64,000 nucleotides of DNA from Actinomycetota bacterium (GTDB lineage Bacteria; Actinomycetota; UBA4738; HRBIN12): the NCBI GenBank assembly GCA_040902745.1, contig JBBDWR010000029.1, forward strand, positions 8,791 to 72,790. The letters run 5' to 3'. This document shows positions 14,420-19,954 of this stretch, in pieces. How positions within the stretch are numbered: the first letter of the stretch is position 1; every line of letters starts with the position of its first letter. The position numbers and the translations under genes were made by a program. Under the pieces are notes generated by a model. It ran no database searches. It saw only the letters and a list, made by a program, of their open reading frames with translations, and was not told the origin of the DNA.

Positions 14420-14537
14420 ACGAACACTCTCCGTGGCCCCGTGACCTGCTGCGGGACAGTGCGTATCGCGGCGCGATGCACGCCTCGCGGCTGACTGCTA
14501 GGCTCCGCGCACGTACATACGAAGACTCCACGTGACT

Positions 14538-14712
14538 GCAGGCGAAGTCCGGTCAAAATCCGGCGCTGTCCCGCAACGGTAGGTCCACCCTCGGGTGGGC
14601 GAGCCCGGTCGCCCTGACGGTCACGAGGGCTGAACGAACCTCCGCGGAGAAGTCGCAGCCACCGGGACACCGTTCCCGCGCCACGACCCTCCCTGAAGTG
14701 GAGGGTCGTTCC
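14538..14712 (+). promoter_or_regulatory. Cobalamin (B12) riboswitch
   Basis: gaaGTCCGGTCAAAATCCGGCGCTGTCCCGCAACGGTAggtcc matches the most conserved core of the cobalamin aptamer. A B12-box-like GCAGCCACCGGGAC lies downstream. It sits in a 330-bp intergenic region immediately 5' of a transporter operon. Confidence 0.8.
14683..14709 (+). terminator. Riboswitch expression-platform hairpin (10-bp perfect stem acgaccctcc/ggagggtcgt, 7-nt loop)
   Basis: A perfect inverted repeat sits directly after the aptamer, followed by tcccgtt. The downstream RBS ggaagga and ATG are at 14749. Confidence 0.5.
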
Positions 14713-14748
14713 CGTTGGGCGCGAGGCACGCCCGGGAAGGAGCTCCAC

Positions 14749-15777
14749 ATGTGTCACACCCTCCGCAGGTCGTTCGGCTTGCTCGTCGCGGCAGCACTCA
14801 CGTTGGCCGTCGTGTCCCCCGCATCCGCCGCACCGACGGACTCGGTGGTCCGTGCCAGGTCGGCTGCCGGGTTCATCGCCACACAGCAGAAGAACAACGG
14901 CTCGATCCCCGCCTTCTCTCCGGTCGGATCCACCGCCGACGCGGTCATGTCGCTGGTCGCCGTGAAACGCGGCCCGATCACGATCAAGAAGGCTCTTGCG
15001 TACCTGGCACGCCAGACCCAGAACGGCAATGTGGTCGGTATCGGGCTGCAGGCCAAGGTCGCGATGGCCGCCGTCGCCGGCGGTCGCGATCCGTCCAGCT
15101 TCGGCGGCGAGGATCTGATCGACGCGATCGCCTCAACGGAACTGCCCAACGGCCGGTTCGGGAGCGGCACCGCCGTGTTCGATCAGTCGCTGGCGATCCT
15201 GGCGCTCTCCGCTGCAGGCGAGACCGTGTCCGACGACGCGGAGGGCTGGCTGGCCGAGGCGCAGTGTCCCGACGGCGGATGGGAGTACCTGGCCAGGTGG
15301 TCGCCGTCGAGCGACGACCACTGCGTGAGCGAGGTCGATCCGGGCAATGACTTCTTCGGATCGGACACCAACACCACGTCATACGCGGTGCAAGCGCTCG
15401 CCTCCGTCGGCGGCGACGCGCTCGCGAACGCGCCGTTCGACTTCTTCACCGCGATCCGCGATCCGCAGTTCGGCGGCTGGGGCTACTCGTGGGGGTACGC
15501 GACCGACGCGAACTCCACGAGCCTCGTGGTGCAGGCGTTTGCCGCCGACGCGCGCACGGTCCCGGCGGGGGCGCTCGCCGCGCTCAAGAAACTGCAGTAC
15601 AAGGATTGCGGCGCGTTCGCCTTTACCTGGATCCCGGACGGCGGGGACTTCGTCAAGAGCGCGCCGGATCCCGGCGCGACGATCTCGGCGATCGTCGGGT
15701 TGCTGGTACGCCCGTATCCCGTCCCGCCGTCACCGGTGACCAAGCCGGCGCCGTCAACACCGGCGTGCCCGTCGTAG
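14749..15777 (+). CDS. Secreted prenyltransferase/squalene-oxidase-repeat protein (alpha/alpha-toroid fold); candidate corrinoid-binding alpha-domain-like protein
   Basis: Signal peptide MCHTLRRSFGLLVAAALTLAVVSPASA. Six or more Q-x-x-[DN]-G-[GS]-[WF]-type repeats are present (QQKNNGSI, QTQNGNVVG, ELPNGRFG, QCPDGGWEY, DPQFGGWGY, KDCGAFAF). Start taken at Met18 of the ORF on RBS grounds. It is the first gene after the B12 riboswitch. Confidence 0.75.
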   Translation: MCHTLRRSFGLLVAAALTLAVVSPASAAPTDSVVRARSAAGFIATQQKNNGSIPAFSPVGSTADAVMSLVAVKRGPITIKKALAYLARQTQNGNVVGIGLQAKVAMAAVAGGRDPSSFGGEDLIDAIASTELPNGRFGSGTAVFDQSLAILALSAAGETVSDDAEGWLAEAQCPDGGWEYLARWSPSSDDHCVSEVDPGNDFFGSDTNTTSYAVQALASVGGDALANAPFDFFTAIRDPQFGGWGYSWGYATDANSTSLVVQAFAADARTVPAGALAALKKLQYKDCGAFAFTWIPDGGDFVKSAPDPGATISAIVGLLVRPYPVPPSPVTKPAPSTPACPS

Positions 15778-15786
15778 GAGGACAAG

Positions 15787-16731
15787 ATGCGAGCGCATAG
15801 TGGCATCACCGTGGGGACCCGGCGATGGAGCCGGATCCTGGCGGCAGCCGTCTTCCTCGCGATCGCGGCACCGGCACCGGCATTGCTGTCGACCACGGTG
15901 GCATGCGCGAGCACCCCCCGCCACGCGGCACTCGTGATCGACACCGGAACTCGGGAGTTGGCGTATTGCGTCGCCATCCCGGGGACGGTCGACGGGATCG
16001 AGCTGATCCGCCTCGCCAACCGCCAATACGGCCTGCAGTACTCCTTGGGGTTCGGCGGCGAGGCCGTCTGCCAGCTCGCGGGAGTGGGCGTCACCGGCGG
16101 CGATTGCTTCGCGGACTTCCCCCGCTTCTGGGGGTACTGGCGAGGAGCACCGGCCGGTGGCTGGTCGTGGTCGAGCGTCGGGGCGGGGTCGATCTCGGTC
16201 GGCCCCGGCGACGTCCAAGGATGGAGCTGGGGCACCGGGCAGGACGGCGCATCACATCCGGCTCCTCCGGTCACTCCGCTCACGTCCGTGTGCGATCCAC
16301 CCGCGACGCCGCCCCCGGACGACGACGGCGGCCCGGGCGCGGGCGCAGGCGGGGACGGCAACGACCGCGGGAACAACGGTGGAGGCGGCGGCGGCGCTCC
16401 CTCCGGTTCCGCGAGCGATCAAAGCAGCGGCGACACCCAAGCGGGCGCGCAATCGTCCGGCGCTTCCGACGCAGGCGGGCAACGATCCGATCAGGAGAAC
16501 GGCAGCGAAAGGGAAGCCAGCGGAAGCCACCCGGACACTTCGGATATGAACCCCGTCCCCGATGAGGTCGCGTCGCCTGGATCGAACGCGGCGCCGGTGC
16601 GAGCCGCGGCGCTCGCGAACAACGAGGCAGGGGCCGACCTGCTCCCGGTAGGGCCCATCGTGAGCCTGCTCGCGCTCGGGATGCTACTGGCGGGCGGCGC
16701 GTTCCTCGCCTGGAAGCGGCGTTCGGGCTAG
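15787..16731 (+). CDS. Secreted, C-terminally membrane-anchored protein with a DUF4430-like (transcobalamin beta-domain-like) module and a G/S/D-rich linker
   Basis: Signal peptide, then a ~140-aa domain with DUF4430-like motifs (LAYCVAIPGTVDGIELI, GGEAVCQLAGVGV, FWGYWRG, GPGDVQGWSWG). A ~120-aa G/S/D/N-rich linker follows, then a C-terminal TM helix IVSLLALGMLLAGGAFLAW-KRRSG. The gap to the upstream gene is 9 nt. Confidence 0.6.
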   Translation: MRAHSGITVGTRRWSRILAAAVFLAIAAPAPALLSTTVACASTPRHAALVIDTGTRELAYCVAIPGTVDGIELIRLANRQYGLQYSLGFGGEAVCQLAGVGVTGGDCFADFPRFWGYWRGAPAGGWSWSSVGAGSISVGPGDVQGWSWGTGQDGASHPAPPVTPLTSVCDPPATPPPDDDGGPGAGAGGDGNDRGNNGGGGGGAPSGSASDQSSGDTQAGAQSSGASDAGGQRSDQENGSEREASGSHPDTSDMNPVPDEVASPGSNAAPVRAAALANNEAGADLLPVGPIVSLLALGMLLAGGAFLAWKRRSG

Positions 16732-16734
16732 CCG

Positions 16735-17514
16735 ATGCATCCACTCGCTTGGATCGCGTGGGCCACCGGTGCGGGGCTCGTGGCGTTCAGCACCACGAAC
16801 CCGTGGTACCTGCTCCCGCTCGTCGGCGTCGCATGGTTCGTCCATGCTGCCCATCGACGAGACGGGCCGTGGGCGAGATCGTTCCGCATCTTCCTGGTGT
16901 TCGGCCTTCTCGCGATGGCGATCCGCACCGCACTGGTGTTCTTCGGCACGGTCGATGCCTCCAACGTGACCTACGCCGCGCTCGAGGGGCTGCGCCTAGG
17001 GGTTCTTCTCGTCGTGTTCGGCACCTTCAACTCGGTCACCGATCCGTTCGGCGTGCTTCGATTGGCGCCGCGACGCTTCCACGAGCCTGCGCTTGCCGCG
17101 GCGCTCGCCTTGTCGATCGCGCCCAGGACGATCTCCGCCGCCGCAACGGTGCGGGAGGCGCAAGAACTCCGCGGCTTCCGTTTACGCCGGTGGCGCTCGC
17201 TCCCCGCGCTCGCGATCCCGGTCCTCGAGACCGGGATGGAAGAGGCGATGACGCTCGCGGAGAGCATGGACGCGCGCGGGCACGGTAGTGGCACGCGGTC
17301 GCGCTATCGGCCCCATCGCTGGACACCTGGTTCCGTCGCGACCGCCGGCGTGGGGATCACGGCCGGGAGCGTCTTCCTCGCCGAGGCGATCGCGCACCGT
17401 CCCGATCTGCTCCCGATCACCGATCCCCTGACGTGGCCTCAGGCGGCACCCTGGCTCGTGGGGGTCGTCGTCCTGCTCGCGCTCCCAGGGCTCGTAGCCC
17501 GGAGTGACCTGTGA
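16735..17514 (+). CDS. ECF transporter transmembrane (T) component (CbiQ/EcfT family)
   Basis: 259-aa polytopic membrane protein with the CbiQ-like conserved Arg-rich cytoplasmic coupling segment (AREAQELRGFR...R). Its stop overlaps the ATPase start (GTGA). Confidence 0.85.
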   Translation: MHPLAWIAWATGAGLVAFSTTNPWYLLPLVGVAWFVHAAHRRDGPWARSFRIFLVFGLLAMAIRTALVFFGTVDASNVTYAALEGLRLGVLLVVFGTFNSVTDPFGVLRLAPRRFHEPALAAALALSIAPRTISAAATVREAQELRGFRLRRWRSLPALAIPVLETGMEEAMTLAESMDARGHGSGTRSRYRPHRWTPGSVATAGVGITAGSVFLAEAIAHRPDLLPITDPLTWPQAAPWLVGVVVLLALPGLVARSDL

Positions 17515-19082
17515 GTCCGGCGCTGCGCTATCGAGACGTCACCTTTCGCTACCCCGACGTCGACGAAGCGGCGCTGACGGATGTGACGGTGGATGTCTCC
17601 GAGGGCTCGTTCGCCCTCGTGGTGGGCCCGACCGGCGCGGGGAAATCCACGCTGTTGCGAGCCGCGAACGGGTTGGTCCCGCACTTTTCCGGCGGCACGT
17701 TCGCCGGGGAGGTCACCGTGGCGGGTCGAAGTACGACGACCACGCGACCCCGGGAACTCGCCGATGCGGTCGCGTTCGTCCCCCAAGACCCGGGAGCGTC
17801 GTTCGTGCTCGATCGTGTAGAAGACGAACTCGCGTACGGGATGGAGAACCTCCGCGTTCCCGCCGACCGGATGCGGCGCCGGGTCGAGGAGACACTGGAC
17901 CTGCTCGACATCGAGCGCCTCCGCAAGCGGAGCGTGCGGACGCTGTCGGGCGGAGAACGCCAGCGCGTCGCGATCGCGGCCGCCCTCGCGGCCGGGCCGA
18001 GGCTGCTCGTGCTCGACGAACCGACCAGTCAGCTCGACCCCCAGGGAGCCGAAGACGTGCTCGCCGGCCTCCAGCGGCTCGTTCACGATCACGGGATGAC
18101 GGTGCTGCTCGCGGAACATCGGCTCGAGCGCGTTGCCGGATTCGCGGACGTCGTCCTCGCGGTCCGGAACGGCTCCGTGGTGGCCGGTGCCCCAGCAGAA
18201 CTCCTCGGCAACGCCGTCGGAGGGCCACCGGTCACGCGGGTCGGACGGCTGCTCGGCTGGGACCCGGCGCCGATCACGGTCCGCGAGGCACGCGGCCTCG
18301 CGCGCTCGGTCGCCCTCGCCGATGCCCCCGCTCCCCCGGTCACCGCGCGAGGGGAGGCCCTCGTGCGCGCTCGTGGGGTCGTTGCCGGGTACCCCGGATC
18401 GCCGGTGCTGCGCGACGTCGATCTCGAGATCGCCGAGGGCGAGGTCGTGGCGCTGATGGGACGAAACGGTGCAGGCAAGACGACGCTGCTGCGGTGCTTG
18501 ACCGGCGTCCACGCCCTCGAGCGCGGAACCGTCGAGGTCCCGAGCCGCCCGCCACGGCCGGGCATCGACGTCGCGCTCTGTCCGCAGGAGCCGGAGTCGG
18601 TGCTGTTCGCCGAGACGGTGCGGGAGGAGGTGCAGGCGACGTTGACGGCGCGCGGGGACCAACGTCCCGCCGCGCCGATACTCGAGCGATTCGATCTCTC
18701 CTCGTTCGCCCGACGGCATCCCCGGGATCTCTCCTCGGGACAGCGCCTGCTCGTTGCTGCGGCCGCGGTGTCCGCCGCCGGGGCACCCGTCCTGCTGTTG
18801 GACGAACCGACGCGGGGGCTGGATCCGGAAGCGAAACATCGTCTCGGGCAGTTCCTTCGCGCGCACGGCGACGATGGAGGCGGCGCGATGTTCGCGACAC
18901 ACGATGTCGAGCTGGCCGCGGACGTCGCCACGCGCGTCGTGGTGTTGGCCGGCGGTGAGGTTATCGCGGACGGCAGGCCAGGCGAGGTCCTCGGCGACTC
19001 CCACGTTTTCGCGCCGCAGATGACCCGCGTCTTCGGCCCGGGATGGCTGACCCCCGAGCAGGTTGCGGCGGCGGTGCGATGA
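17511..19082 (+). CDS. Fused duplicated ECF/ABC ATPase (A-A' components)
   Basis: Two complete NBDs: Walker A GPTGAGKST / GRNGAGKTT, signature LSGGERQR / LSSGQRLL, Walker B LLVLDEPT / VLLLDEPT. Confidence 0.9.
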   Translation: MSPALRYRDVTFRYPDVDEAALTDVTVDVSEGSFALVVGPTGAGKSTLLRAANGLVPHFSGGTFAGEVTVAGRSTTTTRPRELADAVAFVPQDPGASFVLDRVEDELAYGMENLRVPADRMRRRVEETLDLLDIERLRKRSVRTLSGGERQRVAIAAALAAGPRLLVLDEPTSQLDPQGAEDVLAGLQRLVHDHGMTVLLAEHRLERVAGFADVVLAVRNGSVVAGAPAELLGNAVGGPPVTRVGRLLGWDPAPITVREARGLARSVALADAPAPPVTARGEALVRARGVVAGYPGSPVLRDVDLEIAEGEVVALMGRNGAGKTTLLRCLTGVHALERGTVEVPSRPPRPGIDVALCPQEPESVLFAETVREEVQATLTARGDQRPAAPILERFDLSSFARRHPRDLSSGQRLLVAAAAVSAAGAPVLLLDEPTRGLDPEAKHRLGQFLRAHGDDGGGAMFATHDVELAADVATRVVVLAGGEVIADGRPGEVLGDSHVFAPQMTRVFGPGWLTPEQVAAAVR

Positions 19083-19954
19083 GCACAGACGGCGGCAACG
19101 GGTGGATGAGGATCGCGGCAACTCCCGAGCGCGTTCGGATCGGCGTGTTGGTCTTCGCGAACGCCGTAGCCGCGTTCGCGTTCGTCTGGCCGTTCCTCGT
19201 TCCAAGTGTGCTCGGCGCGAACGGACCGCATCAGCGCGACGCGCCACTGATCCTACTCGGCGTGCTCGTGTGTCTCAGCGCGGTGCTGTTCGTCGACCTC
19301 GGCCGGGGCGGCATGGGCCCCAAGGCCGTGGCGCTGATCGGCGTGCTCGGAGCCGCGATGGTCGCGCTGCGGCTGCCGGGGTTCGTCGCGGGATTCTCCG
19401 CGATGTTCATCATCGTGCTCGTCGCCGGGAACGCGTTCGGGCCCGGGTTCGGGTTCGTGCTGGGAGCTATCGGAACCTTCGCGAGCGGACTGTTCGTGGG
19501 CGGGCTCGGCCCGTGGCTCCCGTTCCAGATGGCGGCGATCGGATGGGTCGGCCTCGGCGCCGGGCTACTTCCTGGAGCGGGCACCTCGTGGCGGGTTCGC
19601 CTCGCGGCGCTCGCCGCCTACGGGTTCGTCGTCGGATACGCCTTCGGGATCGTGATGAACCTCTGGTCCTGGCCGTTCACCGCGGCCGGATCCGAGCTGA
19701 GCTGGGTCCCGCAGCAGAGCCTCGCCGACAACGTCGAACACTACGTCGCCTACTACGCCGCGACGTCGGCGACGTGGGACACCTTCCGCGCGATCGGCAA
19801 CGCGGCGATGGTCGTGCTCCTCGGCCGGCCGCTGCTCGGCTCCTTGGATCGCGCCGCTCGGCGCATGCGCCTGGACATCCACACGCCCGAGTTCGTCGAA
19901 CCGCTCCCGGTGCAGGACGCTGCAAGCGACGACGGCGCGGTTGCGCTGCGCTGA
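19079..19954 (+). CDS. Polytopic membrane protein in S-component position (putative substrate-capture component of the ECF importer)
   Basis: ~292 aa with ~7-8 predicted TM helices. The start (ATGA) overlaps the ATPase stop and it is the last gene of the riboswitch operon. It is larger than typical S components. Confidence 0.5.
   Translation: MSTDGGNGWMRIAATPERVRIGVLVFANAVAAFAFVWPFLVPSVLGANGPHQRDAPLILLGVLVCLSAVLFVDLGRGGMGPKAVALIGVLGAAMVALRLPGFVAGFSAMFIIVLVAGNAFGPGFGFVLGAIGTFASGLFVGGLGPWLPFQMAAIGWVGLGAGLLPGAGTSWRVRLAALAAYGFVVGYAFGIVMNLWSWPFTAAGSELSWVPQQSLADNVEHYVAYYAATSATWDTFRAIGNAAMVVLLGRPLLGSLDRAARRMRLDIHTPEFVEPLPVQDAASDDGAVALR

Follow-up and report, generated by a model that had tools for sequence, protein, structure and literature searches.

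Why should an operon for an energy-coupling factor (ECF) transporter encode a protein whose folded domain would sit outside the cell at the end of a long disordered leash? The question is raised by a 64,000-nucleotide stretch of the genome of an Actinomycetota bacterium (GenBank assembly GCA_040902745.1, contig JBBDWR010000029.1, positions 8,791 to 72,790; hereafter the window), in which an intact open reading frame (ORF) of 314 codons on the forward strand, at 15787-16731, encodes the protein that we call beta. An identical protein from an Actinomycetota metagenome-assembled genome (MAG), MEX2275965.1, is labelled 'hypothetical protein' at NCBI. We propose that a dedicated ECF importer is fed by a transcobalamin-like corrinoid catcher divided between two proteins, of which beta is the membrane-tethered one; to this reading we give a probability of about 0.6.

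The beta gene starts with ATG, with GGAGGA 6 nt upstream, and the codon position with the highest GC content is the third in every segment of the gene. The protein begins with a predicted signal peptide (residues 1-41, 15787-15909; like all features of the window described here unless stated otherwise, on the forward strand), in which a basic n-region (R12, R13, R16) precedes a stretch that is hydrophobic over residues 16-40 by hydropathy and is closed by A-C-A at residues 39-41. There follow a beta-grasp domain (residues 42-169, 15910-16293), a disordered acidic linker of 118 aa (residues 170-287, 16294-16647), a hydrophobic helix (residues 288-309, 16648-16713) and a basic tail, KRRSG, with the stop codon (16714-16731). 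The AlphaFold2 model, built with 112 homologues, is globular over residues ~41-175, with a predicted local distance difference test (pLDDT) score of 96-98. It falls to pLDDT <50 over residues 180-287 and ends in a helix at residues 289-312 (pLDDT 85-90); by hydropathy the C-terminal hydrophobic segment comprises residues 285-309 and leads directly into KRRSG. The linker is composed mainly of G (20%), A (16%), S (13%), D (12%) and P (11%), carries a net charge of -15, and shows no significant tandem repeats. By the positive-inside rule, the tail would lie in the cytoplasm. An earlier reading of the same DNA, made from its letters alone (the sequence-only reading), had described this succession of signal peptide, globular domain, low-complexity linker of ~120 aa, transmembrane helix and KRRSG; each part is present, and the layout is conserved across the family. 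We hold this architecture and topology with high confidence.

The extent of that conservation is apparent from an exhaustive HMMER search with the beta domain alone, which recovered relatives in 1489 representative clusters at E<=1e-3, 304 of them at E<=1e-10. We assembled the best representatives with full domain coverage, together with the window protein, into a set of 122 sequences. The combination of linker, hydrophobic stretch and Arg-rich tail is present in 114 of these, and at least 4 of the 8 exceptions appear truncated or frameshifted. The linker varies in sequence but keeps its length (median 110 aa, interquartile range 100-127). Seven positions of the folded domain are invariant (C61, C95, C107, W115, G141, W146 and C169), and two disulfides are predicted within it. 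When the C-termini are aligned on their first basic residue, the hydrophobic stretch measures ~21 residues, with L at position -9 in 50% of sequences, A or G at -6 in 72% and G at -5 in 50%. The first three positions after the helix are R or K in 74-99% of homologues, and the basic tail, at its median, spans 8 aa and includes 4 basic residues.

The predicted fold of the beta domain resembles that of the vitamin B12 carriers. The 17 best Foldseek matches in the Protein Data Bank (PDB) are without exception entries for intrinsic factor, 3u7z or transcobalamin (the last as full-length chains or as the beta domain alone), at probabilities of 0.98-1.00, with ubiquitin-like and FERM beta-grasps ranking next at much lower probability. 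Template modelling (TM) scores on the target are 0.68-0.69 for the isolated transcobalamin beta domain (5no0, 5np4) and 0.71 for 3u7z, which is RUMGNA_00854 of Ruminococcus gnavus and the second-best structural match; it shares 13% identity with the window protein and, unlike it, consists in its crystal structure of a single domain of 97 residues standing alone. By its Pfam assignment, 3u7z is a DUF4430-type protein. The name 'DUF4430-like', which the sequence-only reading had given to the domain, is thus apt for its predicted fold and not for its sequence, as 0 of 112 family members match DUF4430 (PF14478) at E<=1. Rather than an unrelated fold, the model displays a beta-grasp of the transcobalamin-beta/DUF4430 type, including the hairpin after the helix. 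Its elements are two strands (residues 46-52 and 57-63), a helix (70-81), a hairpin (85-88/93-97) and three further strands (114-120, 126-128 and 143-149). Two strands, a helix, an inserted hairpin and three strands are the defining signature of the transcobalamin-like clade of SLBB proteins (PMC1796856), and as modelled the beta domain has the fold by which that clade is recognized. The PDB entries 5no0 and 5np4 represent the isolated human transcobalamin beta domain in its apo and cyanocobalamin-bound states, respectively, and the latter structure indicates that a beta domain alone can hold B12. In the complete carriers transcobalamin and intrinsic factor the vitamin is sandwiched between an alpha/alpha toroid and the beta-grasp domain (PMC1796856). 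The beta domain studied here is probably likewise only half of a binder, with the product of the neighboring gene, alpha, as the other half.

The same analysis connects beta to a named family. The window protein matches the NCBIfam model of the SCO2322 family (NF040672) with 28.2 bits and an E-value of 2e-6, over residues 113-169 only and below the curated cut-off of 85 bits. It has no match to PF28005 in our local copy of Pfam; many of the relatives found by the family profile carry a precomputed Pfam match to PF28005 (SCO2322). On this sequence evidence we regard beta as a divergent branch of the SCO2322 family, and through the predicted structure that family (PF28005, NF040672) can now be linked to the transcobalamin beta fold. 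Our literature search found no paper on SCO2321-2325 or on the actinobacterial beta family, and the database records say hypothetical.

The beta gene is the second of five tightly packed genes. The first (14749-15777) encodes alpha, a secreted protein of 342 aa with a signal peptide and no anchor. The AlphaFold2 model of alpha is an alpha/alpha toroid (pLDDT 94.8, predicted TM-score 0.90) whose nearest structures by Foldseek are squalene-hopene cyclases, drimenyl diphosphate synthase and prenyltransferase beta subunits, and the sequence gives a partial match to NCBIfam SCO2321_fam (NF053823; E 2.8e-30, 105 bits, cut-off 300). Downstream of beta lie the genes for an EcfT/CbiQ-like transmembrane component (16735-17514; Pfam CbiQ, E 2.1e-5, conserved position), a fused EcfA-A' double ATPase (17511-19082; two ABC_tran domains, with matches to ECF_ATPase_1/2) and an ECF S-component (19079-19954; Pfam ECF_trnsprt, E 7.5e-7, 29.8 bits against a cut-off of 30.7). 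The last three genes are joined by ATGA start/stop overlaps at 17511-17514 and 19079-19082. The start of the S-component gene in the latter overlap, 19079, matches the gene call on an identical contig, and the mechanical ORF list had placed it 36 nt too early (19043). A search of the S-component sequence against the PDB found no relative. By its gene content the operon corresponds to group I of the ECF transporters, those with a dedicated energizing module. It also has the secreted product, the CbiO/CbiQ-type genes and the toroid-encoding neighbor that characterize operons of the transcobalamin-like clade (PMC1796856). A scan for related loci, taking one genome per species and a query from a closer alignment of 18 sequences, yielded 80 loci, nearly all from records titled as Actinomycetota or Actinomycetes MAGs. 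The alpha gene lies directly upstream of beta in all 80, and the order alpha, beta, EcfT, EcfA-A', S-component is kept in every one as far as the contigs reach. Because the gene belongs to a conserved ECF-transporter operon, the suggestion of the sequence-only reading, that a ligand-binding domain is tethered near the transporter, is the best reading available.

The nature of the ligand is indicated by the 5' leader of the operon (14490-14748), which contains a match to the cobalamin riboswitch core at 14548-14608 and a conserved element adjoining the Shine-Dalgarno sequence. The match to RF00174 covers the core only, with 26.7 bits and an E-value of 6.9e-5, where the gathering score is 31.5. 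The window leader aligns with the orthologous leaders across the riboswitch core and the conserved element, Shine-Dalgarno sequence included. Among 12 orthologous loci that we tested, the gathering score was reached or exceeded in 8 by a cobalamin or adenosylcobalamin (AdoCbl) riboswitch, always in the same position ahead of the alpha gene, with 31.5-95 bits for RF00174 or 50.5 bits for RF01482. Together, the alpha toroid encoded upstream and the putative cobalamin riboswitch suggest that the ligand is B12 or some other corrinoid, and we consider a corrinoid reasonably probable, with nearly two chances in three on our own estimate.

We envisage the following mechanism. Beta would be exported by way of its Sec signal peptide, which would be cut most simply at A-C-A, and its beta-grasp domain (residues ~42-169, with the two predicted disulfides) would fold outside the cell. 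The C-terminal helix would remain embedded in the membrane and leave KRR in the cytoplasm, giving a type I topology, and the 118-aa acidic linker would let the domain roam into or through the cell wall. A random-coil estimate, for which we used the scaling reportedly given by Kohn et al., puts the end-to-end distance of the linker at ~8 nm, and its contour length is ~42 nm. B12 or a similar corrinoid would be bound by the domain, probably in a clamp formed jointly with alpha as in the transcobalamin sandwich, and the tether would keep the ligand-loaded domain in the vicinity of the S-component, EcfT and EcfA-A', which would import the ligand. When B12 is plentiful the cobalamin riboswitch would turn the operon off. 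Of this scheme, the analysis supports directly the architecture, the predicted fold and the operon, each with its conservation, as well as the riboswitch of the orthologous loci. We infer which ligand is bound, that alpha pairs with beta, that the anchor is retained and that the S-component receives the ligand; for this hand-over we judge the odds to be just better than even.

A number of observations weigh against this proposal. The riboswitch match of the window falls below the gathering score, and cobalt transporters, too, are found under B12 riboswitches. The Foldseek E-values for the beta domain reach only ~1e-3. The window protein has no Pfam match even at E<=10, and at E<=1 Pfam links the 112 relatives neither to DUF4430 nor to transcobalamin; when profiles A1 and A8 were run against all PDB sequences, A1 gave nothing significant and A8 no match at E<=10. 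Transcobalamin is not among the top 50 Foldseek matches of alpha, and the likeness of alpha to the transcobalamin alpha domain is therefore one of fold class only. In the clade to which the window belongs, alpha is also without a membrane anchor. ECF transporters classically work without extracytoplasmic binding proteins, and the homologous system of Lactobacillus sakei has been reported as a heme importer (10.1101/864751).

The last of these points leads to the alternative that survives best, namely that the architecture is as described and the ligand is heme, a corrinoid precursor or a metal instead of B12. The lsa1836-1840 operon of L. sakei has the same parts and was reported to serve heme uptake (10.1101/864751), and 3u7z was deposited as a 'putative metal binding protein'. 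The identity of the beta domain to transcobalamin, ~12%, is too low for a comparison of the residues that contact B12, and the control of cobalt transporters by B12 riboswitches, already mentioned, also fits a metal. Set against this are the cobalamin riboswitches of the orthologous leaders, the S-component, for which neither Pfam nor NCBIfam gives a CbiM/NikM-type match, and the nearest structures themselves, which are B12 carriers and include a beta domain solved with cyanocobalamin. Altogether, we think a ligand other than B12 unlikely.

A second alternative concerns the C-terminal segment, which might be a sorting signal cut by a sortase-like enzyme or a novel transpeptidase, so that the mature protein would be linked to the cell wall and would lack the helix. 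The layout of the C-terminus is that of such a signal, with a semi-conserved motif, a hydrophobic stretch of ~21 residues and an R-R-R tail. In the window protein itself, the hydrophobic stretch (288-309) and the short basic C-terminal tail (KRRSG) follow the pattern of a sortase substrate. There are also weak matches to models of the LPXTG, LAVTG and GVDTG types, limited to their hydrophobic and basic part (LPXTG_anchor reaches 15.4 bits, just short of its cut-off of 15.9), a weak match to Pfam Gram_pos_anchor (PF00746) in 8 of 112 relatives, and a faint resemblance to the PGF-CTERM terminus of a Haloferax S-layer protein (E 0.31). Moreover, some transcobalamin-like proteins bear true Gram-positive anchors (Burroughs et al., PMC1796856). 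However, all sorting-signal models remain below their cut-offs (LAVTG, for example, at 16.7 against 27 bits) and align only at model positions ~10-33. The juxtamembrane region of the window protein reads ADLLPVGP (16627-16650, in the context ADLLPVGPIVS), and neither its L-L-P-V-G-P nor the family consensus contains an LPXTG, LAXTG or Thr-Gly motif. We accordingly rejected LPXTG and the other catalogued sorting signals (TIGR01167, PF00746), for which the scores are below cut-off and the motif is absent. In addition, the juxtamembrane motif is wholly replaced in distant relatives while the helix and Arg tail stay, and the conserved operon contains no sortase-like gene. Processing of the C-terminus by a sortase-like enzyme is in our view quite unlikely, and retention of the helix in the membrane is preferred.

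The motif in question is, in the actinobacterial clade, G-P-P-x-x-G (G 49%, P 42%, P 44%, G 39%). In Chloroflexi-like relatives its place is taken by motifs of the N-Y-L-x-F or W-L-Y-x-I-F-G types, with the helix and Arg tail persisting. An [AG]-G pair is also found 5-6 residues ahead of the Arg tail in 50-72% of sequences. The juxtamembrane motif and the [AG]-G pair could represent a helix cap, a packing motif or a novel sorting signal. It is conceivable, though improbable, that the C-terminal module as a whole (G-P-P-x-x-G, the 21-residue helix with its [AG]-G pair, and R-R-R) is not a passive anchor, and instead acts as a docking helix on EcfT or the S-component or as an unrecognized actinobacterial sorting signal processed by another enzyme; the conserved Cys of A-C-A could then be part of the same maturation pathway. 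A docking helix, if that reading is true, would give the ECF transporter a capture subunit of its own on a leash.

The remaining alternative, that Cys40 is lipidated, with an N-terminal lipoprotein anchor, the C-terminal helix as second anchor and the linker as a loop between them, is highly improbable: a Cys does follow directly on the hydrophobic N-terminal stretch in 95 of 122 homologues, is left as the odd one because the other four are invariant and able to pair together, and in the window lies in a T-T-V-A-C that fits the loose PROSITE core, but the strict lipobox [LVI][ASTVI][GAS]C occurs in only 3 of these 95 homologues and the G+LPP core in 5, the position at -3 from the Cys is mostly P, A, S or G and that at -2 often P, and the A at -1 (82/95) and at +1 (90/95), with Pro or Gly a few residues upstream, is better understood as an AXA signal peptidase I site. 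The T-V-A-C of the window does not conform to the strict pattern, and the lipobox was rejected.

The Cys of A-C-A (15901-15909; homologues P0004-P0153), which in these 95 homologues occupies position -2 of the AXA site, ahead of the first strand, seemed at first to have a counterpart in alpha. In 118 of 120 homologues of alpha, one of the final 4 residues is a Cys, which follows a Pro-rich tail of 16-18 residues, and six distant systems have neither the terminal Cys of alpha nor the N-terminal Cys of beta. A disulfide between the two subunits, which would have imitated the linker that joins the two domains of transcobalamin, was considered and rejected. In the model of alpha the tail is docked on the toroid with pLDDT 97-98, and homologue P0225 has lost alpha C287 and the terminal Cys together while its beta partner keeps V-A-C-A-S. 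Given this joint loss and the docked tail, C287 and C340 are most simply an intramolecular pair in alpha, and they (15607-15609 and 15766-15768) probably form a disulfide by which the tail is fastened to the toroid.

The proposed catcher can be placed between several known systems. In its predicted fold, including the hairpin after the helix, in its extracytoplasmic location and in its association with an alpha/alpha toroid, beta resembles the beta domains of transcobalamin and intrinsic factor (5no0, 5np4, 2bb5, 2pmv). It differs from transcobalamin in having no detectable sequence similarity to it, in that toroid and beta-grasp are separate gene products, and in that its family has four invariant Cys, a long disordered linker and a transmembrane helix. 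With the bacterial transcobalamin-like SLBB proteins beta also shares the association with CbiO/CbiQ-type transporter genes. These proteins were surveyed in 2007 by Burroughs, Balaji, Iyer and Aravind, who described signal peptides and sometimes Gram-positive anchors, fusion or adjacency to toroids, and operons with CbiO/CbiQ genes, and who predicted B12 scavenging (PMC1796856). Members of the transcobalamin-like clade were assigned in that survey to low-GC Gram-positives, planctomycetes and euryarchaea, with no mention of Actinobacteria (PMC1796856).

The same composition is found in L. sakei, in which the beta-like Lsa1839, the alpha-like Lsa1840 and the ECF module Lsa1836-1838, with its S-component, ATPase pair and EcfT, provide the same five parts in one operon, and in which the two secreted proteins were proposed to capture ligand for the ECF module (10.1101/864751). 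In contrast to the window proteins, Lsa1839 and Lsa1840 can be recognized as transcobalamin-like with HHpred; they are described as soluble exported proteins, with no long tether or C-terminal helix reported. The L. sakei system also differs from that of the window in the ligand claimed for it, heme, and in that no riboswitch is reported. With the Streptomyces families SCO2322 (NF040672; PF28005) and SCO2321 (NF053823) the likeness takes the form of the partial matches of beta and alpha, respectively. The SCO2321 model is named membrane protein, whereas in the clade of the window only beta is anchored. Finally, a flexibly tethered binding domain near a transporter recalls the lipoprotein substrate-binding proteins that serve ABC importers in Gram-positives, and LPXTG-anchored surface proteins. 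Unlike those, beta relies on a C-terminal helix and Arg-rich tail, with no lipobox and no LPXTG, and its transporter is of the ECF type.

Variants of the arrangement were also seen. In three distant systems (L082 2-844, L084 1171-2364 and L086 723-1766) alpha, like beta, is equipped with a disordered linker that leads to a hydrophobic helix and a basic tail. In L083 (4211-5995) and L085 (1-207) alpha is extended at its C-terminus by repeats of ~40 residues (YWLFASDGGVFAFGDAxFxGS...), possibly a beta-propeller, and in L083 the ECF genes are divergent, on the other strand. In one related genome (L009, 9908-10290) the S-component gene is followed immediately by a gene for RNase P RNA (285 bits). 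Variant architectures also occur among the beta proteins (P0115; P0137, P0146, P0151, L087 2540-3721), one of which contains three beta-grasp domains in tandem; Chloroflexi-like betas have extra Cys-rich insertions and an additional domain of ~90 aa between the beta-grasp and the linker.

The junction of the alpha and beta genes, which in the window are in the same frame and separated by TAG plus 9 nt (15775-15789), is a source of artefacts. Two candidate natural alpha-beta fusions, P0070 (623 aa) and P0143 (480 aa), were rejected as frameshifted read-throughs that retain the beta signal peptide. More generally, the apparent fusions or truncated betas (P0070, P0143, P0003) are products of frameshift or read-through at this tight junction in GC-rich assemblies. 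Antisense and other-frame ORFs of 100-600 aa also overlap the operon, for example at 15483-16376 and, with 602 aa, at 17439-19247, both on the reverse strand; these overlapping Arg/Pro/Gly-rich ORFs are the usual open-frame artefacts of DNA with ~68% G+C.

On this reading the window protein is a very divergent member of the transcobalamin-like scavenging systems anticipated in 2007, and since the general idea was predicted then, nothing is overturned by it. What sets it apart is that the binder is split, that only the beta half is anchored, by a long leash of conserved length and a helix that is not of the sortase type, and that a riboswitch link supports B12 as its ligand. Operons of this type would add to an ECF transporter two exported proteins that jointly resemble the animal B12 carrier transcobalamin. 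The conserved length of the disordered leash suggests a design rule, set by the reach required from membrane to wall. The large actinobacterial clade to which beta belongs has so far been annotated as 'hypothetical protein'; its size, together with the riboswitch link to B12, suggests that it probably stands for a widespread way in which uncultured Actinomycetota of soils and sediments scavenge B12.

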